A stretch of 62,656 bases of DNA, the filler included. It is 4 parts of 4 records of this genome, joined end to end, with 100 filler letters (N's around TTAATTAATTAA, not from the genome) between each part and the next. Parts side by side here need not be neighbours in the genome. Positions count along the whole stretch, not along the records: positions 27,366 to 57,098 come from SRR20825019_1662; 3 more parts are not named here. One strand, given 5' to 3'. A program made the position numbers and the translations under genes. Shown here one piece after another: positions 3,867 to 62,656 of the stretch. The notes under the pieces are model-generated. The model had not been told where the DNA came from. It ran no database searches and saw nothing but the letters and a program-made list of their open reading frames with translations. Position 1 is the stretch's first letter. Every line of letters starts with the position of its first letter.

Positions 3867-4720
3867 CTATATACCAGTCCTAATATTCCCTCCGCGCAGA
3901 CCTTGCAAGAAGTTCACTGCGGAGCGGCACAGTTTGGAAAGGCGGCCGCCCGGGCGAAGCTTCAGGGTTTCGCGACCGCATTGCGAACAACAATGTCTGC
4001 TGTGGAGATGATGGCCTCCTCAAGTATTCCTTGTCGCACACCCAGCAGTCGCATCGCCGGCCATCTGACGGCTACAGCCTTAGGTGAAGGAGACTGCTAC
4101 GGGGGAGGGCGAGGGCTCGCGTGTGAGTCAACCAGTGCCTCTTCGAGGGGTCAGCCGGGGGCGAGGGTGCCGCGACTACAGAGCCGGGTGATCACACTCC
4201 CAAGTTGGGGTTCAGTTGGGGGCTGCGCGAGTTGCATCCACTCATGTGTGCACGCGTGACGCTACTAAAATTAACAGTGCGATGACTGTAGGATACCACC
4301 GCAATGTCAATCGAAGCGACACCGCATCATCACATAGATTGATAGCTCCCGCAGGATTTCGGATAGAATCCCAGCCGTTATGTTACTTCCGCGCGGCTGA
4401 GGACAAGTTGACGTTCCCAACACACGCAGTTCAGCACAGACTGCCAGGTGCACGCTCGGCCAGAGCACTGTCAGGCCCGGCCCGCCGCAGCCCGGCCGGC
4501 GCTGTTGGCCACTGACGACCGGCCGTACGTGACGTCTGCCGGGCCCGGGGTGAGTGCCCCAAGAATGATCCGTGGTGGGTTCAGTGCCGGCGACGTGAGA
4601 TAACTGGGGCATCATGATGTGCCCAATGTGACGGCGGCGGTCGGGTTCTCAATGCTCGCGACGGCACCTGAGACATATGTATGACTAGTGTGAACCTCAC
4701 TAGCAGTGTCTGCAGCGGTC

Positions 4721-7700
4721 ATGCCGGAGGGGATCCAGCATGCGTTGTGGATGGAGGACGCTACTGAGGGATGGCTTGCTGCCACCGCAGGGCGGCTGGA
4801 AGGCCACGACGTCGCGGTTTTGCCACGGAATCCAGAGGAGGATCCGCTGAAACTGGCGGACGATGATCTGTCGTCGATTTCTTTCCTGCATGAAGCGGCC
4901 ATCCTAAACTGCATCAGCACACGCTTCGAGAATGGCATGCCGTACACGAAATGTGGTAGCCATTTTGTTGCTGTCTGCCCTAATACGCCCAAGAGTGGCT
5001 CCGACACACACCTTCGTCACTCCTCGGTTGTGGAGGCTACGGCAGAGAGCCCCCCCGCTGTGGCGAAGGAAAGAAGCGCTTCCGTGGCATCATACGCTCG
5101 GTCAGTTCATGCGCGCCTCATTGGCACGCGGGAGCCACAGGTGGTTTTTATGGGAGGCGCTGCGGGGTCTGGCAAGACTGAGCTTGCACTGGACATGATC
5201 AAGCACTTGTGTCATTGCAGTGCTGTTGCGCCGTGGGGCGAGGATGGGTCAACGCCTACAGGCCTCAAGCTATATGATCAAATGGAAGCAGCGCATACCA
5301 TACTCCGTAGTCTGGGGTGTGTAGAGACAAGAAGGAACCGTCTAACGAGTAAGATAGGCCTAAGCACCACTCTAAAGTTTGCCGATGACGCTGGTGTTGT
5401 GGGGGCATCTATCCTTCCCGTTTTCCTTGAATCATCCTCAGTGTCGACTCCATCCCTTAATGGTGCCAGGAACTTTCATATATTCTATGAGCTCTTGGCA
5501 GGGCTCAACGACGGGGAGCGGGAAGCATGGAAACTTCCTGTTGCGGAGAATGCGCGTGATTTTTGGTATCTGTCGGCAGAGGGAAGCGCAGGCTGCCACA
5601 GCGAAGATGGAGCGAATTTCCAGGCTGTGCGGTGAGTGCTGATGGTAGTGACGTTTGTGTATCATAATAACTCTAATACTATGTGCCCAGAAATGCCCTC
5701 AAGGTGGTAAATTTCACAAAAGAAGATCAACGCTCTATCTTCCGGGCCCTAGCTGGCATTTTGTTTCTGGGGAATGTGACCCCCGAGGTAAACGCCAACG
5801 GGGACTGCACCCTAAGGGATTCGGAGGCGTTAAACCAGGCGTGTGGCCTTCTTAAGATAGACAAGGCCGTTCTCAAGCGTATGGTATGCACAGGGGAGGT
5901 GGGACCGAGCATGCTGGATCACGCACAGGATCTCCTCACTGTTACTCCCAAGCGGTTTCAGGATGCTATGGACCATGCCACCCCCTCCACCACAGCGTCC
6001 ATGCTAACGCCTCACACGGGGGCCTCGAAGGGTCAGTCCCGCTCACCATTAGCTGGAAACCCCAAAGATGAGGCCGTTGTGCGCCGTGATGTGCTGGCTA
6101 GGGCCTTATACTCACGAATCCTAGAATGGATATGCCGCCGTGTGAACATGCTACTCTATCGCCGGGCGAGCGTGGCGGAGCCACTGTCCCTCACCGTGGT
6201 TGATTTCCCCGGGCCACGGCTAACTGAGACGGCAGGAGGTGATCTGGAAGATCTGTGCGTGAATTACATGAACGAAAGGCTCTATAACAAGTACCTATCT
6301 GCCATAGTTGGGAGCCCTCAGGCTTTGTACCAAGAAGAAGAACTTCAGTGGAGCAAATTGGATGTGAGAACCAACCGTGACGTGCTGGACCTAATAGACG
6401 GAGTGGACGATGGGCTGTTCTTTCTTCTTGATGAGCAGTACGATGTCACATCTTCGCGCCCACCAAACGATGCGGATCTGCTGGAAGCGATTGTCGCCAA
6501 TCTGGGTTCGGAGATGGCCTTTGGCGGGCAGCGGTCCATGCCCTTTGCAGGTTTCACGGTGAGGCATACCTGGGCCCCGGTCACCTATCACATCAACGGC
6601 TTTGTCAAGTCTGGCGTCGCTCTTCAAACAGCCGACGCAATGGTAAGCAAGTGTGCTCTACCCTTTGTGACGAACCAGCGCCTTGGCGGAGTGGGGTCCG
6701 GGGGCCAGTCCGAAAGCCACCAGAGCATTGGGCTGATGTGCAAGGAGCGGGTTGCCATGTTGATGCAGAATCTTTCCGCAGCCAACGTAAATTTGGTCAT
6801 GTGCATATCTCCCAATGACTTTCGTGCCCCGCGGCAGGTTCAACGTGTCCATGTGTTGCAGCAGATTAGGGATCTCAGCATGGGTGCAGTTGCCAAGATG
6901 GCCCGCTGGGGCTACCCTCTGTCAATGGAATTTGAAGATTTCATCGGGAAATATGGGGTTATCAACAAGAAGGCCTCGAGTCTCACCCTCCGTTCTGCCC
7001 CGCGATTGTCCTGTCAGCTGCTGTTGGACTCTATATCGATGGAGCAGAGCTGCTTCCAGCTGGGCACGACGCGTGTCTTTGTATCCTCAGTTGGCGCGGC
7101 TGTGTTGAGCGAGATCGAAACGGGCTCAGCTACCTCATTTTATGATTGTGATTCCATTGCGTGGTACCGAAAGACACTAGGATCTACTTGCCAGGAAGCC
7201 GGGCCGCCGTCCCCCGCAATGAAACCCGCAGCTGCTACTGCAACGACTTCCACGTCCCCATTGGGAGCACTGCGTGCGCTCACTCGTAGTGCGGCGACCC
7301 TGATGTCAACTTGGACGTCACCTTCAAAGGAGAAGGGCGCAACAGCGGTGAACGAGGTAGAGTCAAACAATGAGGGCGCTGGTGCATCAACTGAAAGGTC
7401 GCACCGCGACGACCGGAGTGTGATGTCCGGCCCTGGGGGCACAAAGAGTGAAGGTGGTGGCAGCTTCGTGGATGAGTTAATGGCCGATACGTATCAGTAT
7501 GAGAATGATATAATCAAAGCTCCCAAGGCGAGCCCCCGCCATGTGATGAATCACCGCCGGCGTCAGTTTGAAGAACAATCAGCATCTCCATCACGATCCA
7601 CTATTAATGCTGGTAAGGATCAGGTGAGTCTTCTGAAGGCACATGCTGGTCATGCTATCAGCCCTGTTCGGGAGGAAGGAGCAAATGGAGGGCACGCCGA

Positions 7701-42806: not shown

Positions 42807-42946
42807 TAAACTAAACCACCCGCTCCACCGAACAGATCAACAGGATGGCACAGATATCCGTAACTAAAATTCCAAGTTCGGGCGTTTTTCTGCCTGTAGC
42901 GGGAGATCGCTGCAAAAACCCCCGCGACGCTATCGATAGAGGACAT
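42806..42946 (-). CDS. 46-aa ORF coupled on both sides (below the ORF-track cutoff)
   Basis: TGATG and TAATG overlaps with its neighbours. Confidence 0.45.
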   Translation of the reverse strand: MSSIDSVAGVFAAISRYRQKNARTWNFSYGYLCHPVDLFGGAGGLV

Positions 42947-43611
42947 CAAAGCAACACCCCCTGCTGAACAAAGCTCGACTGTGCTGTTGGCGTCACTTGG
43001 GCTGGCAAAAACAGGTCAAGGTTGTCCATCTTTGGCTTTGGCAGCGTATCCCAAAGGGTCGGGCCGGAATAATCGCGCACGAACCCGAACCAAGCACAAT
43101 CAAGCGCGCCATTGCCAAGGCCAAGGCTATCGATCCGCCATGACAGTTCCAGCTTGTATTTGGGCCGGATGCGGGCCTTGAAACCCTGCCTGTTGGCCGC
43201 TTGGTAATAGTTGGTTTTAAGCAGCATCCAAACCTCTTCCATATGCAGGCGCATGGCATGCTCGATAAAAGCCTGCGCCAGCGTGAAGGGCGGATTTGTG
43301 ATGATTTTCGAGGCGCGCGGGCGCGTGGTGGCAAGGAAATCCACCTTGCCCTCGCCATATCCACGATCAATCAGATCCGTGCTAATGACCTTGCAGCCAT
43401 GAAATTCAAGCACCTTCGCCAACCGGCCATCGCCGCACGCGCATTCCCAAAATTTGCCACCGGCCAGATGCGGCATGGCACGAATAAGCGCCTCGGTCGC
43501 CTCGGGCGGTGTGGGATAGAATTGGTTTTCGTCCGGGCGCTCCCAATCGACCTTGCCCGACTGACCGCCCTGCATCATGGCGCCTTTGTTCACTTTGCGT
43601 TTGGCGACCAT
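42946..43611 (-). CDS. Phage DNA amino-methyltransferase (adenine-type)
   Basis: FYPTP, WECACGDG, IITNPPF. Confidence 0.85.
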   Translation of the reverse strand: MVAKRKVNKGAMMQGGQSGKVDWERPDENQFYPTPPEATEALIRAMPHLAGGKFWECACGDGRLAKVLEFHGCKVISTDLIDRGYGEGKVDFLATTRPRASKIITNPPFTLAQAFIEHAMRLHMEEVWMLLKTNYYQAANRQGFKARIRPKYKLELSWRIDSLGLGNGALDCAWFGFVRDYSGPTLWDTLPKPKMDNLDLFLPAQVTPTAQSSFVQQGVLL

Positions 43612-43694
43612 CACGCTACCCCCTTGAGATAGCTTGACCTTGGCAGGCGATGCACCAAAAATGCCCGGATCAGGGCAGCATCAGGGATTAGGCA

Positions 43695-44276
43695 ATGCGC
43701 AAGCTCGAAGACTGGTTGAACGGCGCCCCTTTTGCCGGAATGGTTGGGGTTGCCTTTCTCACAGGGGCGATCTATGGCCGCGAATTCGACATCAATTGGG
43801 AAACACTTGCCGCCGGCTTCCTTGGCCTTATCGGCGGTTTTTTGGCATTCTTGGCCGCCACTAGGGAGCAACAAGCAAACCGCGAGAGGAATACTTTTGC
43901 TCTCAAAAGCCAAGCTCTGACACCAACAAAGGACGCCATTCAACATATTAACGCGGCAGTAGAAGCGGGAAACGCGAACGCCTTCTACATAGACTTCACC
44001 AGAGCGTTGAAATCCATCAAAGAGTTGGAGGAAATCCTGATCGAAATAGGACCGCTCGACCGAAGCGCCGCTGACATCGTTGCCCATCTTGGAAACGAAA
44101 TTAACTGGATTAAATCGGTTGCAAGACAGGCAAAAACAACCGTCAAAGTTACAGATGCAGGACACACATATGTAGCTAAGGTCGCAATGGAGCCACTTTT
44201 GCGAAGCAGCCTCAAAGACATCAATAGAAGGCTTTCCAAACTCGAGGAGCTCTGCGATCCAGCTTGGTTTCTCTGA
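43695..44276 (+). CDS. Antisense cargo gene A: 2-TM N-terminus plus helical domain
   Basis: Opposite to the operon; two hydrophobic segments. Confidence 0.72.
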   Translation: MRKLEDWLNGAPFAGMVGVAFLTGAIYGREFDINWETLAAGFLGLIGGFLAFLAATREQQANRERNTFALKSQALTPTKDAIQHINAAVEAGNANAFYIDFTRALKSIKELEEILIEIGPLDRSAADIVAHLGNEINWIKSVARQAKTTVKVTDAGHTYVAKVAMEPLLRSSLKDINRRLSKLEELCDPAWFL

Positions 44277-44278
44277 CA

Positions 44279-45433
44279 TCACGCTGCCCCCAAGATCATC
44301 GAGTTGAAATCGGTACCTGGCCTTGACATCGCCACCCGCCCCTTGCAGCCCTCTTGGGCCGCACGGCGGCAACCGCGCTCAAGCTTCGCGCGCAGCATCG
44401 GCATGTCTTTGGTATCGCCATCACCAAGGAAAATCCGCTCGCGGCATTCCCGCGGCCAGATCATGCCCGGGCGGGCCATATCGGGCACAACGGCGGGCAA
44501 ACGACGCCGCCCGTCATAGGGATGACGATCCCCCTTGGCATCCATCAGGCAAGCCCCGACAAGGTTATCCAGCGAATAGGAACACCAGCCGGAATGCCCG
44601 GAAACCATCATGCCGGAATAGGTCGTTTCCAACCCTTCCCCGCCCACCATCACAAAGGCAGGCTTGCCGAGCCGCATAGCCGCCGTTGACGGATCACCCA
44701 TGACGCGCTTGGTATTCAGATCACGATCCTCATCCGGCGCGGGTAGCTTCAACCGCCCCTTTGGCTGATCCAGATCGATGCAGGTGATATGACAGGCGGC
44801 AAACCGGTCATCGCGATATTGCATCACGGTCAGCAAGGCCGGGCCGGTCCAGATCGCCTCGGGCTTTTTGGCATCCCGGGCGCGATACCAGAATTCATAA
44901 TCAGGCACAAACCGATGCACCGGGTTATGCAGGAACAAATCCCGATCTATCCCGCGATGTTGCGCCAGATATACCTCGGCAGCGGTCCCTTCGATCCGAA
45001 CGCCGCGCTGCCACATCCTTTGCCCGCGGCGGCGGCGCTTTTCGGTTTCGGTTTCGCGTTCCGTTTCATCAGCACGGCTGGCGATTTTCGGCTTGGGCGC
45101 GACCTTGGGCTTTTCGGCCCGTCCGACATAATCGGTCAGATCAACACCCGCCTGCCACGCAAGCCCCTTGACCGCCTCGATAAAGGACTGACCATAAACG
45201 CGCATCTGATAACCGATCGCCGTTTCATGGGCGCCACAGCCGAAACAGTGTGCGAACCCCAGGTCGGGCCGCACCGTGAAGGACGGCGTGCGCTCCGAAT
45301 GGAACGGACAAAGGCCTTGATATTCACGCCCCGACTTGATCAGCTTGACGCCCGAGGCTGCGACCAGATCAACCAGATCGGTGCGGGCGATGATGTCGTC
45401 AATTACAGATTGTGGAATGGGAGCATGTGCCAT
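44279..45433 (-). CDS. DNA primase (CHC2 zinc finger + Toprim-like)
   Basis: LCPFHSERTPSF..HCFGCG, GEGLETT, LGDGD, DFN. Confidence 0.9.
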   Translation of the reverse strand: MAHAPIPQSVIDDIIARTDLVDLVAASGVKLIKSGREYQGLCPFHSERTPSFTVRPDLGFAHCFGCGAHETAIGYQMRVYGQSFIEAVKGLAWQAGVDLTDYVGRAEKPKVAPKPKIASRADETERETETEKRRRRGQRMWQRGVRIEGTAAEVYLAQHRGIDRDLFLHNPVHRFVPDYEFWYRARDAKKPEAIWTGPALLTVMQYRDDRFAACHITCIDLDQPKGRLKLPAPDEDRDLNTKRVMGDPSTAAMRLGKPAFVMVGGEGLETTYSGMMVSGHSGWCSYSLDNLVGACLMDAKGDRHPYDGRRRLPAVVPDMARPGMIWPRECRERIFLGDGDTKDMPMLRAKLERGCRRAAQEGCKGRVAMSRPGTDFNSMILGAA

Positions 45434-45468
45434 TAGTATTCCCCCACGCTAATATTGGGGAATATGAC

Positions 45469-46014
45469 ATGAGCGAACTCGCAGGACGGTTGACATATTT
45501 GGGGTTTGGCGTACTGACGGGAAGTGCTGCAATTGCTGGCTATTTTGGGTATTTCCGAAGCAACTTTGACGTCACCAACACGCTTCAAATCTTGATAGCA
45601 ACTTTCACCGCGATTGCAGGCGGCATGAGCGCCTATGCCGCGCACCAAGCCGCTACGGTCACCAAGAAAACACACGATAACGCAGAGAAACTCCACGAAA
45701 TTCGGATAGCATGCGCGAAGAGTGTCATCACGGAAACACTGTCCATAATGCAAGACGGACAGTACGAGCTGCACAAACCGCTTGTCATCGCCAATATAGA
45801 AGGCTTTATCATGTCCTGTCAGGTGATTGAGTTTGCCCTGATTGAACCGATGGACGCCACCCAGCACCAGGCCCTTTGGCAAGCCCGTGCCACAATTCAA
45901 CAAATGTGCGCAACACATAAGGAATTGGGGCACCTCCCGCCAGATAGGCGGGAATGGGTGGAAGGCCAACTGGTTAGTGTGCTTGAGGCATTTAACCAAG
46001 ATCCGATGGATTAG
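45469..46014 (+). CDS. Antisense cargo gene B: 2-TM N-terminus plus helical domain
   Basis: GGGGAA RBS; two hydrophobic segments. Confidence 0.72.
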   Translation: MSELAGRLTYLGFGVLTGSAAIAGYFGYFRSNFDVTNTLQILIATFTAIAGGMSAYAAHQAATVTKKTHDNAEKLHEIRIACAKSVITETLSIMQDGQYELHKPLVIANIEGFIMSCQVIEFALIEPMDATQHQALWQARATIQQMCATHKELGHLPPDRREWVEGQLVSVLEAFNQDPMD

Positions 46015-46016
46015 CA

Positions 46017-46505
46017 TCATGCCGCCGCCTTTCGGGCAGCGCGCCCTTGGTAATAGCCGCGCAGTTCAAGCCTTGATGCCAGCTTGCGGGCATTCTTTTC
46101 ACCAGATTTATAGGCGCCTTCAACCAGATCATCATGCTTTTCGATCTGGGCGATCAGGCAGGTGGCGGCAAGGTCAAAATCCGATCCCTCGATAAGCACC
46201 AGCGTCCCGTCGGCCAGCATGTCGCGAAGCCAGATGACAACCATCAGAAACACCGTGATCACCGGGCGATCTTCATAGTCAAGCAACAACTCCGCCTGCA
46301 GGGTCATCACCCGGCGACGAAGCTTGCGCGCCCGATCCTGCGGCAGATCAGCAAAAGGTTCGTTGCAGGCACGCTCAAGAAACTCAAGGCACTCGGCATG
46401 GCCTTCCTTGGTTGCCGGTTCAAGAATGATCCGGGCCACCCGCTGCATCAAAACAGCCGGAAGGGCATATTCGCACCGATGACGATCAGAAATATATCCC
46501 GTCAT
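46017..46505 (-). CDS. Hypothetical phage protein
   Basis: YISDRHRCEYALP..GYY; coupled. Confidence 0.7.
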   Translation of the reverse strand: MTGYISDRHRCEYALPAVLMQRVARIILEPATKEGHAECLEFLERACNEPFADLPQDRARKLRRRVMTLQAELLLDYEDRPVITVFLMVVIWLRDMLADGTLVLIEGSDFDLAATCLIAQIEKHDDLVEGAYKSGEKNARKLASRLELRGYYQGRAARKAAA

Positions 46506-46717
46506 CACCGACCACCCCATGCCGCCAGATAATGACGACCATCATCATTGATCGTAAAATCCATGAAACCGATAGCGTCATAGGAAACGTCGCCCAGACC
46601 ATCATCGCGCAGGGCATAAGCCACCCGGGCATGACGGGTAATCATGCATTCGCCGCCCTGATTGACAGCCTTTTGCAAAATGGCCCTTTTCTCGGCCCCT
46701 GTTACCCGCCCCATCAT
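46505..46717 (-). CDS. Hypothetical small phage protein
   Basis: Coupled on both sides. Confidence 0.6.
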   Translation of the reverse strand: MMGRVTGAEKRAILQKAVNQGGECMITRHARVAYALRDDGLGDVSYDAIGFMDFTINDDGRHYLAAWGGR

Positions 46718-47097
46718 GCCGCCACCCCGTAAAGTCTGGGCTGCGGCTCAAGGGCGGCACTCATGCGATCTGCGGCCTCGCGCAAAAGGACGGCGATGGA
46801 CCGGATCAGGGCGCGCAAACCGGCACGTTCCGCATCAAACCCGCCCAGAACCCCGGCCCGATGAAGCTGGGCCGCGTAACTTTCAAAATGCGGGCACCCT
46901 GCCCCGGCCCGGGCCGATGCAATATCAGCATCAACCGCGGCCTGCATATTGATCACATCGCCGCGCATCGGATTGGCGCATTGACGCAGCCGGGAATAGG
47001 AAACTCCGCAAACTCCGGCCAAGGCCTCGCCACCGACAGCATGCATTGCCTTGGTGGTCGCATCGGCGAAACTGTTTTCGGATCGAATGTATGGCAT
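46714..47097 (-). CDS. CII-like regulator
   Basis: Downstream of cro; VGGEALAGVCGVSYSRLRQCANP; GGAAGG RBS. Confidence 0.6.
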   Translation of the reverse strand: MPYIRSENSFADATTKAMHAVGGEALAGVCGVSYSRLRQCANPMRGDVINMQAAVDADIASARAGAGCPHFESYAAQLHRAGVLGGFDAERAGLRALIRSIAVLLREAADRMSAALEPQPRLYGVAA

Positions 47098-47179
47098 GGC
47101 TATCAAACCTTCCCATTTTGGGAGTTGCTGCCCGATCAGGCGAAGCCCATAAGAAAGGGACAGCAACGGAGCAACGAAC

Positions 47180-47374
47180 ATGACCACGAAGTCAGAAAGA
47201 ATTGACGCCCTGAAACGCGCCACCGAAGATTTCCGCGAAGCCCTTGAAACCCTGCAACAAAGCAGCGATCCATCTGACCGAAAACACGCGGAAGCCATTC
47301 TGCGACGTGCCGGATGGGAAAAAGACGACAATGGCGTGTTCAAGCCGCCTCAGAGTGATCATCGTTCAAATTGA
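47180..47374 (+). CDS. Antisense cargo gene C: small charged helical protein
   Basis: GGAG RBS; 64 aa. Confidence 0.55.
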   Translation: MTTKSERIDALKRATEDFREALETLQQSSDPSDRKHAEAILRRAGWEKDDNGVFKPPQSDHRSN

Positions 47375-47555
47375 AGAAATCGTTAGGGGTGACATCACCC
47401 CCTGTTACCTCGACAATTTTGTGCATAACTTTCGGGGCCGGGACGCGATCGCCATCCTCATAACGGTAAATTGCCTGCGGCGATGAGCCGATCATCTTCG
47501 CAAACTCTTTCCGACTTCCGCCGCAGTGCTGCTGTATCCAGAGCGTTAATTTCAT
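47340..47555 (-). CDS. Cro-like HTH repressor
   Basis: EFAKMIGSSPQAIYRYEDGDRVP..TGGDVTPNDF; divergent from cI. Confidence 0.88.
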   Translation of the reverse strand: MKLTLWIQQHCGGSRKEFAKMIGSSPQAIYRYEDGDRVPAPKVMHKIVEVTGGDVTPNDFFNLNDDHSEAA

Positions 47556-47651
47556 GACAACCGAACGCTATCTCCATTTTGGTGTATCGTCAACACCAAA
47601 AATCACCAACATGGCGATAGACATCTCCACCAGAATAGAGACAATTAGACC
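47556..47651. promoter_or_regulatory. OR region: PR (TTGACG-17-TAGCGT, minus), PRM (TAGACA-16-GACAAT, plus) and CACCAwwwTGGTG-type operators
   Basis: Operators at 47572-47584, 47604-47616, 47628-47640. Confidence 0.72.
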
Positions 47652-48386
47652 ATGAAAAACGCAAATCGCATTAAAGAGGCAAGAGAAGCGGCAGGAATGT
47701 CGCAATCTGAACTCGCAAATAAACTGGGAACCACCAACCAGCAAATTAGCCGGTTGGAGTTGGGCCAGCGCAAACTCACCATCGATTGGGTGATGAAAAT
47801 CGCAGAGGCATTGAAAATTCCAACCAATGCACTTTACGACCGTCCTGCGATGGAACCGATTTCGCGAGAAAGGCTACTTCAACCGCTAGGCCCAGACCCG
47901 GACCGTGAAAAATACGCCGATGCTTTGACCGATGAGAACAAGATACCCGAAATTGACATCCGGGCTGGAATGGGTGGAGGCGCGGAACCTCTTGTTGCGT
48001 TCAAACCCAACGGTAACGGGCACCACATCACGACAGACGCAATCAAAGCGGAATGGCTGATACCAAAAGAATACCTGATTACCGAGTTACGGGTGGCCCC
48101 GAGAAATGCCAGAGTTATTGAGGTTCAAGGCGACAGCATGGAACCCACCCTCAGAAGTGGCGACCGCGTCATCGTCAACACTGCCGACAAACAACCAAGC
48201 CCACCCGGCGTATTCGCCTTATGGGACGGCTTTGGCGTCGTCGTGAAGCGGATTGAGGTTATACCCAACTCAGAGCCGCCAACCGTGCGGGTCGTTTCAG
48301 ACAACGCCCACCACTCCACATACGAGCGGACCGTCGATGAAATCAACATCATCGGTCGAATAGTCTGGTACGCCAGAAAGCTTTAA
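47652..48386 (+). CDS. CI-like repressor (XRE HTH + S24 peptidase)
   Basis: MSQSELANKLG..ISRLELG; VQGDSMEP, VVKR. Confidence 0.93.
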   Translation: MKNANRIKEAREAAGMSQSELANKLGTTNQQISRLELGQRKLTIDWVMKIAEALKIPTNALYDRPAMEPISRERLLQPLGPDPDREKYADALTDENKIPEIDIRAGMGGGAEPLVAFKPNGNGHHITTDAIKAEWLIPKEYLITELRVAPRNARVIEVQGDSMEPTLRSGDRVIVNTADKQPSPPGVFALWDGFGVVVKRIEVIPNSEPPTVRVVSDNAHHSTYERTVDEINIIGRIVWYARKL

Positions 48387-61085: not shown

Positions 61086-62555
61086 ATGCGGCCCTATTTG
61101 TCTTGGCTAACACTTATTTTGATATGGCTTGTGGCAAAGGGGGCAAGCGGGGAGGGAGAGTCAGGCGCTGGAGGCGTTGAAGCAGATGCCGCTGCAAGCG
61201 CCGTTGATCTTGTGGTCCGGGCCAAGCAGTGCCTCATGTGAGTGCCTGATAACAAGTGGCTTGGTCGTCATTCTGACACCCTACCGTGACAGGACTGGTG
61301 ATGACGACTGCGTTCTCGCCTCTCTGAACAGAGCACTGGAACTGGACACAACCCTCGGCATTGCATACCATAACAGGGGCGCCGCCCATTTCCGAGCGGG
61401 AAGGGCGGAACTAGCATTAGCGGACTTCACCAAGGCGAAGGAGCACCTTGGAGAGGTGGACTACGTGCTGCGCCACCGGGGGTCAGCTCTGCTCGAGCTG
61501 GGCAAAACGGATGAGGTGCACCAGTAGCTTGAGTTTGACTGAGGGATGCAACCTCACCGGCGTGTGACTGCAGGGGCTGGCAGAGCTGCGCAAGGGGGCG
61601 TCGCAAGAGAACTCGACGGAGGCATATAATGAACTCGGCAAGGTATTCAGTCGGTTGCTGTCGGGCAGGTGTCGGCCTGACCGAGGGACAGGCTTTCCAG
61701 GAGGCAGGCAGGTACAAGGACGCGATCGAGGCATACCAGCAGTCTCTCGGGCTGGAGGCAGGGCTGGAGGCCGCCCTGGGGGTTGCCGGTATGTACTGTG
61801 GCCAAGTGGGGCAGCAGGCCATGACTAATGCGGTGTATAGAGGGCTGGGTTTCACTAGGGGACATTGGCCAGGGTATATCTGTGTACACCATGGTGAGGT
61901 CACCCAGTGGTGCCCCGCCAATAGCTAACCTTGATCAGATACTCCGGGACGTCGGGGATTCTTGCGCGGAATGCACCGTGAGGGTGCTGGCCGGGAGGAT
62001 GGAGGCATTCGTGGCCGCGAGGATGTATGAGCGGGCGCTACTAGACATCGAGTGAGTGGCGCGGTATCCACGCCGCCCCGGCGACCTGACCGCCTGTGCA
62101 GGCGGCTTGTTTCCACGGATACAGAGGGGGGCTCCCAGTGGCACTGCCGTGAGGCCAAGATCCTCCGCCTGCTGGGTGATTACTCGGCGGCACTCGGAGC
62201 CTTAAACAAGTGAGTCACTCCGCCGCTCTCCCGGGGGCTCCTGTACCGACCGCCTCCTCCCACTGTGCAGGTGTGCGCCGCGTCCAGAGGACCTGAAGGC
62301 TGTGCAAGCGGCGGTGTGGGCGGCCGAGGACGCCGTTCTTGGCGTTGTCGACCGCGCGGCCACGGGGACGTCCTTGGAGCCTGTTTTCCTGGAGGTTGCG
62401 TGAGTGTTACGCTGAAGTGTTCATTAGCCCGGTGCTGACAGGCGCATAGACGCCGGGGCCTCCTCCCACTCCTGCTGGACGGGGTTCTGTGCCTAGCCGT
62501 GATCACTCTGGGCGCTGTCTTGCGTCTCCGGCGAGGCGCCTTCGCAATGATGTAA
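61086..62555 (+). CDS. TPR protein with signal peptide and C-terminal TM (spliced)
   Basis: AYHNRGAAHF..ALADFTKA, GRYKDAIEAYQQSL; hydrophobic N- and C-termini. Confidence 0.65.
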
Positions 62556-62656
62556 GCATGCATGTGTGAACAGAAGGCTTGCCTTTAACACACGCCTCCC
62601 CTACTAGATCCCCCGTACTCGCATGCGTAATGTACTGCACGTGGATGTAATGTACT

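Follow-up and report, generated by a model that had tools for sequence, protein, structure and literature searches.

Antisense accessory genes in the early operon of a Thalassospira-type prophage are crossed by stop-free, start/stop-coupled reading frames that are probably kept open for translation

How can an operon be expressed across genes that sit inside it in the opposite orientation? The question is raised by a Thalassospira-type prophage contained in a 62,656-nucleotide (nt) stretch of DNA (the window, along whose full length coordinates are counted); Thalassospira is the name of two genome records that hold homologues of one of its genes, cargo A, or related loci. The early lytic operon of this prophage occupies the - strand as an unbroken run of open reading frames (ORFs) overlapping by their start and stop codons. 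Two + strand genes interrupt it, cargo A between the genes for the primase and a DNA methyltransferase, and cargo B between the gene for a 167-amino-acid (aa) protein and the primase gene. This is the layout of a noncontiguous operon and is found likewise in related phages. The cargo A and cargo B regions have a G+C content of 46-52%, against 58-65% in their flanks. Opposite each cargo gene, the - strand carries a long stop-free ORF, called here a bridge, which is joined at both ends to its operon neighbours.

Bridge A (43611-44279, - strand) begins where the primase TGA (44281-44279) overlaps an ATG (44279-44277), and continues for 222 codons without a stop to a TGA (43613-43611) overlapping the methyltransferase ATG (43611-43609). 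It is antisense to cargo A (43695-44276, + strand, 193 aa), whose TGA (44274-44276) directly adjoins the bridge ATG, 2 nt from the primase stop. Bridge B (45433-46020, - strand) begins in an ATGATG (46020-46015) overlapping the stop of the 167-aa gene, and its 195 stop-free codons lead to a TAA (45435-45433) overlapping the primase ATG. The gene opposite, cargo B (45469-46014, + strand, 181 aa), has its TAG (46012-46014) against the bridge ATGs, with the 167-aa gene's own stop only 2 nt away. The diverging starts are 35 nt apart in B and 83 nt apart in A, which leaves little space for an internal operon-sense promoter. Each of the two bridges is the exact codon-by-codon reverse complement of its own cargo. 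An open bridge therefore amounts to a cargo gene without TTA, CTA and TCA codons plus a short non-coding remainder without stops. An earlier note on this DNA had described the overlaps, the abutting cargo stops and the shared register of A and B, and the sequence agrees with it on all of these points.

Relatives of the prophage were reached via its primase in genome, viral and metagenome collections. After removal of duplicates (L007, L011, L012, L090-L095), 13 further distinct phages were kept (L001-L006, L008-L010, L013, L014, L096 and L097), giving 14 with the window. In all 14 the operon-sense strand is a chain of ORFs starting from cro or the next gene, bridge ends included, and successive genes overlap by ATGA, TGATG or TAATG as in a coupled operon. 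The joints are almost always overlaps of -4 or -1 nt, and the largest gap is at most 15 nt in 13 of the 14 phages.

What lies in the two slots of this chain varies. Slot A, from primase to methyltransferase, has no insert in L002, L004, L005 and L006, the stop of the primase and the start of the methyltransferase there sharing a TGATG, and holds a sense gene (PAPS_reduct) in L097. In eight phages, the window and seven relatives, it contains nine antisense cassettes of the cargo A family, all of them spanned, two being in tandem in L010; in L013 the junction opens a far larger antisense block with a toxin-antitoxin bridge of 952 codons. Slot B, upstream of the primase, carries sense genes in L002 and L005 (DUF1653) and in L004 (D12 methyltransferase), and antisense genes in the window, in L003 and, with DUF4145, in L001, L014, L009 and L096.

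Altogether, about 21 antisense cassettes were found in the 14 phages, comprising a family with two predicted transmembrane segments (2TM), DUF4145/HEPN, and toxin-antitoxin modules of the ParE, HigB-like and HicB kinds. A single operon-sense ORF of 195-952 codons crosses 20 of the 21 from end to end, and three quarters of the remaining one. Over single genes these ORFs measure 195-311 codons, over multi-gene blocks 423, 488, 752, 789 and 952 codons. The 488-codon bridge of L014 crosses an A-family gene, a helix-turn-helix (HTH) antitoxin (38.8 bits) and ParE (41.2 bits), and the 952-codon bridge of L013 crosses HicB-like (67 bits), HI1420-type antidote (97 bits) and Gp49/HigB-like (24.9 bits) genes and more. 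The absence of stops within a bridge is a matter of definition; what was found is that practically every antisense occupant has such a frame. The slot comparison suggested in the earlier note thus returned variable cargo under a frame that is open and coupled in 20 of 21 cassettes. Frequent antisense stops in homologous inserts, which that note gave as grounds for abandoning the idea, were not seen, the exception being one cassette of L009 with eight.

Could such frames arise by chance? Antisense frames open wherever the rare codons TTA, CTA and TCA happen to be missing, and tight packing of genes can mimic coupling. Gene by gene, chance P calculated from the window's synonymous codon usage is ~0.05 in the case of A and ~0.08 in that of B. 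Loci of every kind abound in in-register stretches that stay open on both strands over 150 codons or more (1,047 in 1,610 kb, a generic scan dropped as non-discriminating), and the upstream ATG comes free with the junction. The single-gene values being modest, the strength of the case for A and B comes from the relatives. TTA, CTA and TCA each occur zero times in a set of 21 non-redundant cargo genes with 3,865 codons in total (378 for Leu, 189 for Ser). Synonymous codon usage in the window itself predicts 57.6 (ln P = -61), and the background used for comparison has 29, 45 and 96 of them in 10,664 codons. The depletion test put forward in the earlier note thus gave the predicted outcome, as the slot comparison did, and the comparative part of that note's interpretation is supported. 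Left out of this set were the L096 near-duplicate DUF4145 gene and four L097 genes (93-99% identical to their counterparts), L008_B (start uncertain), L009_X (8 such codons) and the off-register cargo C, described below. At the rate of five early-operon sense genes (15 in 1,469 codons) about 39 would be expected in the cargo set, and the third-position A content of each cargo gene gives an expectation of 5-11 per gene. In a wider background of 172 ORFs, 668 of 42,759 codons are TTA, CTA or TCA (1.56%), and all three are missing from 4 of the 120 background ORFs that reach 150 codons, compared to 21 of 21 cargo genes. The ten A-family genes are 41-67% identical in nucleotides and therefore count as near-independent trials.

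The open frame also extends outside the genes. In 16 bridges, the 1,050 codons lying beyond the listed cargo ORFs contain no stop in the bridge frame, versus 81 and 50 in the other sense frames, and the intra-cassette spacers (27, 9, 129, 3 and 42 nt) are multiples of three in five cases out of five. Bridges of 488, 752, 789 and 952 codons, which pass over several genes, likewise speak against chance. With the relatives included, codon counts and frames confirm bridges A and B as far beyond chance. As an explanation for A and B as a class chance is refuted, and we give it next to no probability; it is tenable for the third case, C, alone.

The same depletion, confined exactly to three sense codons, might also have served the cargo's own translation, if the transfer RNAs for UUA, CUA and UCA were scarce or attacked, the open antisense frame being a by-product. 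The cargo is, however, rich in other A-ending codons (ATA 59, AGA 44, ACA 78, GTA 41, and AAA 152 versus AAG 66), rare ones such as ATA, AGA and GTA being enriched, and neighbouring genes use TTA, CTA and TCA normally. Codon choice within cargo does not account for non-coding spacers and promoters that are stop-free in the same frame, nor for genes that are phase-locked. The sole case seen of homologous cargo outside a bridged setting, in Klebsiella phage 2b (below), has 7 such codons. We hold this explanation to be very improbable.

Where does the coupled start of a bridge come from? The primase ends in all phages in ...GGGGGC[A/G]GCGTGATG, and the ATG there starts the methyltransferase in cargo-free phages and the bridge in cassette-bearing ones. 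The window has the junction motif CATCACGCT[A/G]CCCC in duplicate. Its proximal copy (44277-44290) reads on the - strand as a Shine-Dalgarno (SD) sequence followed by GTGATG, and its distal copy (43609-43622) supplies the SD and start of the methyltransferase. These are the only two exact copies in 62.6 kb, 668 nt apart on either side of cassette A, and the one at the far end of the cassette restores SD and TGATG for the methyltransferase. Bridge A connects the ATG at which the methyltransferase ancestrally began with the TGATG at which it begins now. At the far end the sequence is GTCAAGCTATCTCAAGGGGGTAGCGTGATG; its complement includes a -35-like TTGAC for the cargo, an element that L001, L003, L008 and L009 also have, conserved, at the end of the cassette. 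In the window a consensus scan places a promoter-like site for cargo A at 43634-43662 (+ strand, TTGACC-17-AAAAAT), and none was found for cargo B. Slot B is built on the 167-aa gene (46017-46520, - strand), whose conserved 3' end, ...GGCGGCATGA, gives the start codon to any occupant through the ATG of its GCATGA, while the occupant's stop comes from the ATGA of the primase, in the window a TAATG. This same gene end is followed by sense genes in L002, L004 and L005 and by bridges in the window, L003, L008 and L009.

Judging from these comparisons, the upstream coupled ATG is the original start codon of the gene downstream, inherited via junction duplication and not evolved anew for each cargo. 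Here we depart from the earlier note, which took double-ended coupling as the real signal: in the cargo-free L002, L004, L005 and L006 the same TGATG starts the methyltransferase. Since the upstream overlap is inherited, what needs explaining is frame, register and openness. The real signals, as read from the sequences, are codon depletion across highly diverged cargo, stop-free spacers and phase-locking.

In L010 (8155-9581) the tandem A-family cassettes, each with its own bridge, form an array-like layout with ~35 nt of the primase 3' end duplicated between them, which suggests repeated insertion or recombination at the junction motif.

Which of the two strands encodes protein? As judged by substitution patterns, Pfam matches and codon usage, it is the cargo strand. 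Above-gathering Pfam matches on this strand are HicB_lk (67 bits), dnstrm_HI1420 (97), Gp49 (24.9), HTH_31 (38.8), ParE (41.2) and DUF4145 (49-54), whereas none of 10 long operon-sense ORFs was matched by Pfam, nor were bridges A and B and the bridge of phage phi644-2 (below). In PHROG, where bridges A and B were the only ones scanned, both were without a match. In 11 pairs of homologous cargo, variability by codon position is 0.59-0.77 at position 3, 0.41-0.65 at position 1 and 0.29-0.54 at position 2. In the bridge frame it is position 1 that varies most. Members of a pair share 18-51% of their amino acids in the cargo frame and 11-31% in the bridge frame, the latter value being the lower in all 11 pairs. 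Codon log-odds, with 26 genes of the window as training set, are per codon +0.06 to +0.19 for homology-anchored operon genes of at least 100 codons, -0.02 to +0.17 for shorter operon genes and for sense genes that lack a homologue in the window, and -0.11 to 0.00 in the bridges. Bridge A scores -0.04 and bridge B -0.07, the latter value making the opposite strand of B look coding.

These data bear on two further alternatives. One takes the operon-sense ORFs as the real genes and the cargo ORFs as their shadows, and the bridges are indeed longer than the cargo ORFs and stand in a perfect coupled chain. The Pfam matches, the substitution pattern and the codon log-odds all favour the cargo strand, and gene callers elsewhere chose the cargo frame, so that this alternative, refuted for Pfam-identified and family-conserved cargo, has a minimal probability overall; it may still apply to L008 5069-6004. 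The other alternative is true dual coding, with bridges encoding functional proteins such as lytic-phase antagonists of the cargo. With its native SD and start, a bridge would be translated each time the operon is switched on, a bridge has been annotated at least once as a coding sequence (CDS), and in staphylococcal phage 80alpha an antisense product (Ith) inhibits the defence system that it overlaps (PMC11087260). Purifying selection or a family signal in both frames, as expected of dual coding, was not found in the bridges: their frame is the less conserved in all 11 pairs, with position 1 the most variable, and those scanned lack Pfam and, for A and B, PHROG matches. Moreover, bridge sequence is replaced wholesale together with the cargo, and single ORFs cover several unrelated genes and their promoters. 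Dual coding is therefore improbable, if somewhat less so than the alternatives dismissed above.

We consider it likely, though well short of certain, that this is a noncontiguous operon whose antisense inserts have been made translationally transparent, the bridges being translated without coding for protein and kept open against polarity. Accessory cassettes would insert in opposite orientation exactly at start/stop-overlap junctions of the early lytic operon, each probably with its own promoter. Insertion would duplicate the junction (SD and TGATG), so that the ancestral start of the downstream gene opens an ORF reading the cargo backwards in register, and the second junction copy ends this ORF on the start of the downstream gene. 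Selection would then keep the bridge frame free of stops in cargo codons, promoters and spacers, with the genes of multi-gene cassettes spaced in threes. After induction, ribosomes would enter by way of the inherited SD and ATG and read the bridge as far as the next start, where they would stop; covering the long polycistronic early mRNA, they would avert Rho-dependent polarity and decay and supply the next start with ribosomes. In the lysogen, cargo would be made from its own promoter, to be silenced by head-on early transcription after induction. Cassette anatomy, conservation of the arrangement across diverged cargo, junction duplication, recoding of the cargo and phase-locking can be seen directly in the DNA compared here.

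An open frame might also have been selected for reasons other than Rho, with ribosomes shielding early mRNA from pairing with cargo mRNA or from RNase III and RNase E, or unmasking an SD. The literature on noncontiguous operons stresses processing of double-stranded RNA and polymerase collision (PMC11087260, PMC11034616), and the complement of the cargo SD sits just upstream of the next operon SD, with which it can pair. At 45437-45464 (- strand), a hairpin in operon-sense RNA pairs the primase SD, GGGGGAA, with the complement of the cargo B SD (minimum free energy -18.2 kcal/mol, z = -1.91; 9 of 200 shuffles fold as well). Such hairpin statistics are weak, and protection against polarity is equally compatible with these observations and does not exclude mRNA protection. 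We regard selection for mRNA protection instead of against polarity as unlikely, though clearly the most serious of the alternatives. A weak hairpin resembling a terminator, T-run included, lies within bridge A just ahead of where the methyltransferase starts (43662-43677, - strand). It was considered and rejected as it is unconserved and the region has 5 such sites versus 5.4 expected.

Outside this phage family, a tblastn search with DUF4145 cargo led to Burkholderia phage phi644-2, in whose early operon a DUF4145 gene (54 bits) lies antisense. The in-register ORF that passes over this gene has 301 codons and is ATGA-coupled to gp53 on one side and to gp56 on the other. This cargo has no TTA, CTA or TCA, and its neighbours have 1.0% per codon. 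Klebsiella phage 2b has a DUF4145/HEPN gene (HEPN 25 bits) antisense between the lysis genes and terminase of its late operon; there, a Q antiterminator is annotated, the antisense gene has 7 TTA/CTA/TCA codons and no ORF spans it. The two phages fit, without establishing it, the idea that bridges matter where transcription is otherwise unprotected.

In the public annotation of phi644-2 (L171 3852-4257), fragments gp54 and gp55 take the place of the bridge and the DUF4145 gene on the other strand is missed. In phiBt-TXDOH (L172 2411-3316), the bridge is annotated as a hypothetical protein CDS, BtTXDOH_27, and the DUF4145 gene is unannotated; by ORF length and arrangement this appears to be the same locus as in phi644-2 (the pair was not aligned) and is not counted as a second case.

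Several observations weigh against translated bridges maintained against polarity. Translation of the bridges and transcription of the operon as one unit are what we infer from sequence. Every downstream gene has a good SD of its own, so that translational coupling is not obviously needed, and the SD-masking hairpins at distal junctions are weak (z = -1.91 and -1.35). The L009 cassette at 3868-4767 is spanned only in part: its 8 stop-forming codons all fall in cargo codons 240-269, and gaps of 108 and 31 nt are left. For L003_B and L096 9508-11766, the antisense coding call is weak, resting mainly on codon log-odds (with one SWIM match in L096), and for L008_B the log-odds of -0.00 favour neither strand. 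The examples from outside the family are one bridged and one unbridged. Of the 80 putative embedded antisense genes that an automated survey picked out in 147 more distant loci, 5 were spanned, a figure that is unreliable either way and was used neither for nor against, as the survey's crude gene caller took the longer bridge ORF and recovered none of the known cassettes as bridged.

Bridge C belongs here as well. The earlier note had counted the pattern three times, which stands for A and B. In C, a TTG (47343-47341) does overlap the cro TGA (47342-47340), as that note had it, and its frame continues for 209 codons down to 46714, but the bridge lies off-register to its cargo. This cargo is short (cargo C, 47180-47374, + strand, 64 aa), and the ORF varies among relatives: the fused form is found only in the near-identical L004, L005 and L010, while elsewhere separate short ORFs cover the spacer. 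On such sequence features bridge C is not separable from chance.

A more general reading is that in bacteria whose transcription is trailed by ribosomes, genes lying antisense in an essential phage operon, and perhaps in a chromosomal one, must become a ribosome bridge through recoding, with TTA, CTA and TCA avoided, placement in register and spacers in threes. We advance this tentatively, as somewhat less likely than not. That a bridge of up to at least 952 codons is kept purely for being translated and not for its product, which forms part of this general reading, we hold just as tentatively.

How does this arrangement compare to known systems? Noncontiguous operons, in which co-directional genes are interrupted by one or more opposite-strand genes with their own promoter, were first described in Staphylococcus aureus, and in phage 80alpha the cI operon is interrupted by the antisense gene ith (PMC11034616, PMC11087260). 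The antisense layout in 80alpha links a defence gene with the switch between lysogeny and lysis and prevents autoimmunity (PMC11087260), which the cargo silencing proposed here would match. According to an atlas of noncontiguous operons, these are transcribed across untranslated antisense regions, with 'runaway transcription' as the answer for Gram-positives (PMC11034616). Here, in contrast, the antisense stretch is a start/stop-coupled, stop-free ORF obtained through recoded cargo, and the named relatives are from proteobacteria. The passages of PMC11034616 and PMC11087260 retrieved by search terms do not mention a translated bridge made from a recoded antisense gene. As in the excludon and other long overlapping antisense transcripts (PMC7154746), one transcript would be both the mRNA of downstream genes and an antisense RNA to a diverging gene. 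The excludon, of which there is an example in Listeria, is, however, a transcription-only concept, and no requirement for an open frame was found described in the literature searched. More broadly, no description of the bridge arrangement was found in the full-text literature searched, most subscription journals and supplements being outside it.

Phage morons, for example lambda bor and lom, are extra genes with their own promoter amid conserved genes, and classical morons carry their own terminator; none is known to be recoded for the opposite strand. Cargo resembles morons in being variably present among close, syntenic relatives, in its atypical composition with lower G+C, in a probable promoter of its own and in genes seemingly useful to a lysogen. 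It differs from them in that it has no evident terminator (no + strand terminator-like site was found in 43400-47700) and in that its stops abut the neighbouring gene. The topAI upstream ORF is a leader ORF whose translation, and not its product, blocks Rho (PMC12121999), and a bridge is likewise proposed to matter through ribosome occupancy of the RNA. ORFs of the topAI type are short, regulatory and situated in a 5' leader, whereas bridges have 195-952 codons and are placed within an operon over functional genes of the opposite strand. Finally, antisense overlapping genes or shadow ORFs (PMC8850804, PMC3454372, PMC7457138) are similar in their long in-register antisense ORFs and stop-codon depletion, but this literature asks whether the antisense product is functional, and the bridge frame here shows no constraint at protein level. 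In the antisense-protein review PMC7457138, the terms 'Rho' and 'polarity' do not occur.

If translated bridges are real, they would answer for bacteria with coupled transcription how operons cross an antisense stretch, namely by making it translatable. They would also mean that selection acts strongly on a gene's synonymous codons to the advantage of the other strand, and that ORFs hundreds of codons long stay open with no protein encoded. Annotation suffers, as with the phiBt-TXDOH bridge entered as a gene while a DUF4145 defence-type gene beneath it was missed. The codon signature (no TTA, CTA or TCA, together with phase-locking) is easily searched, and one synonymous change in the cargo is enough to make a bridge stop. 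Should the general reading hold, bridges would be a computable mark of noncontiguous operons and of phage operons without processive antitermination, and would flag defence and toxin-antitoxin cargo hidden behind 'hypothetical proteins'.

The cargo itself is diverse. Cargo A belongs to a small 2TM family with the motif W-E-T-x-x-A-G...G-G and a hypervariable C-terminal half; it has homologues at 57-79% identity, two of them named Thalassospira, and 106 cluster representatives at E<=1e-3 among 1.84 billion. Cargo B, for which 2TM is predicted from its sequence, has one homologue at 65% identity in a metagenome, called in the same frame. Neither cargo A nor cargo B has a match in Pfam, PHROG, PADLOC or NCBIfam, and a Pfam scan of 100 members of the A family found no shared family, at most two members matching any one. 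BLASTP shows no significant similarity between A and B (E = 2.4), so that their common 2TM layout is read from sequence only. Locus searches with cargo A alone (genome and viral collections) and with cargo B alone (viral) found nothing. An identity of cargo A as a SLATT 2TM effector was rejected, NCBIfam, Pfam and PADLOC giving no match. An unrelated antisense cargo of 219-235 aa, in L013 (9223-9930), L009 (8009-8668) and L097 (10407-11114), may be a 2TM conflict-system effector; it has sub-threshold scores for SLATT_1 (23.9 bits in the 235-aa form of L013, cut-off 41) and SLATT_4 (17.6 bits).

Type II toxin-antitoxin signatures, that is adjacent small toxin and antitoxin genes above Pfam cut-offs, are present in the cargo of L013, L014 and L097: ParE_toxin (41.2 bits) with HTH_31 (38.8) in L014, Gp49 (24.9) with dnstrm_HI1420 (97.4), and HicB_lk (67.1). 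DUF4145/HEPN-type cargo is present in L001, L014, L009, L096 and phi644-2 (Pfam DUF4145 49.3 bits in L001 and 54.3 in phi644-2), with a weak PADLOC match to PD-T7-4 (E = 4.4e-5). Cargo C is found at 47-100% identity by tblastn in 9 of the 13 related phages (L002, L004, L005, L008, L009, L010, L013, L096 and L097). In the window it converges on cro, overlapping the cro 3' end, and in the relatives it is always convergent on a cro-type gene in this way. A Pfam scan of cargo C gave only ATP-synt_DE, below threshold, and no family is assigned.

The remaining genes of the operon follow in order. A cro-like HTH gene (47340-47555, - strand, Pfam HTH_3, 36.4 bits) heads the early lytic operon examined and its ORF chain, and a repressor-like gene diverges at 47652 (+ strand). 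The 209-codon operon-sense ORF (46714-47343, - strand) combines bridge C with a gene that the earlier note had labelled CII-like, and its conserved core is at ~46714-47100. A 70-aa gene (46505-46717, - strand), ATGA-coupled to the preceding ORF, leads to the 167-aa gene. The DNA primase (44279-45433, - strand) has a CHC2 zinc finger and DUF7146 (Pfam 94.5 and 54 bits; PHROG 510). In L006 (4900-7011, also in L092) the primase ORF has 703 codons versus 385 and carries LAGLIDADG_3 (31 bits) inside the region of the CHC2 zinc finger, for which Pfam gives two separate matching stretches; an intein or a homing-endonuclease insertion is suggested. The DNA methyltransferase (42946-43611, - strand, PHROG 799, E = 3.7e-48) is the next operon gene, and past it are a 488-aa protein with a weak P4-primase C-terminal match and more long - strand ORFs.

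Past the methyltransferase in relatives, chain ORFs with negative codon log-odds (L002 7814-8248, L004 7817-8254, L001 7563-8297 and 10852-11706) face long in-register antisense ORFs and are probably further bridged cassettes, outside the counts given above. A distant phage, L018 (primase 31% identical, G+C 0.50), has a slot of 204/207 codons between methyltransferase and primase (6351-6977) that is open on both strands; its + ORF is ATGA-coupled upstream, and neither frame has a Pfam match. At the right end of the window, ARAGORN reports an asterisk-marked transfer-messenger RNA gene (62023-62587), which may be the attachment region of the prophage.

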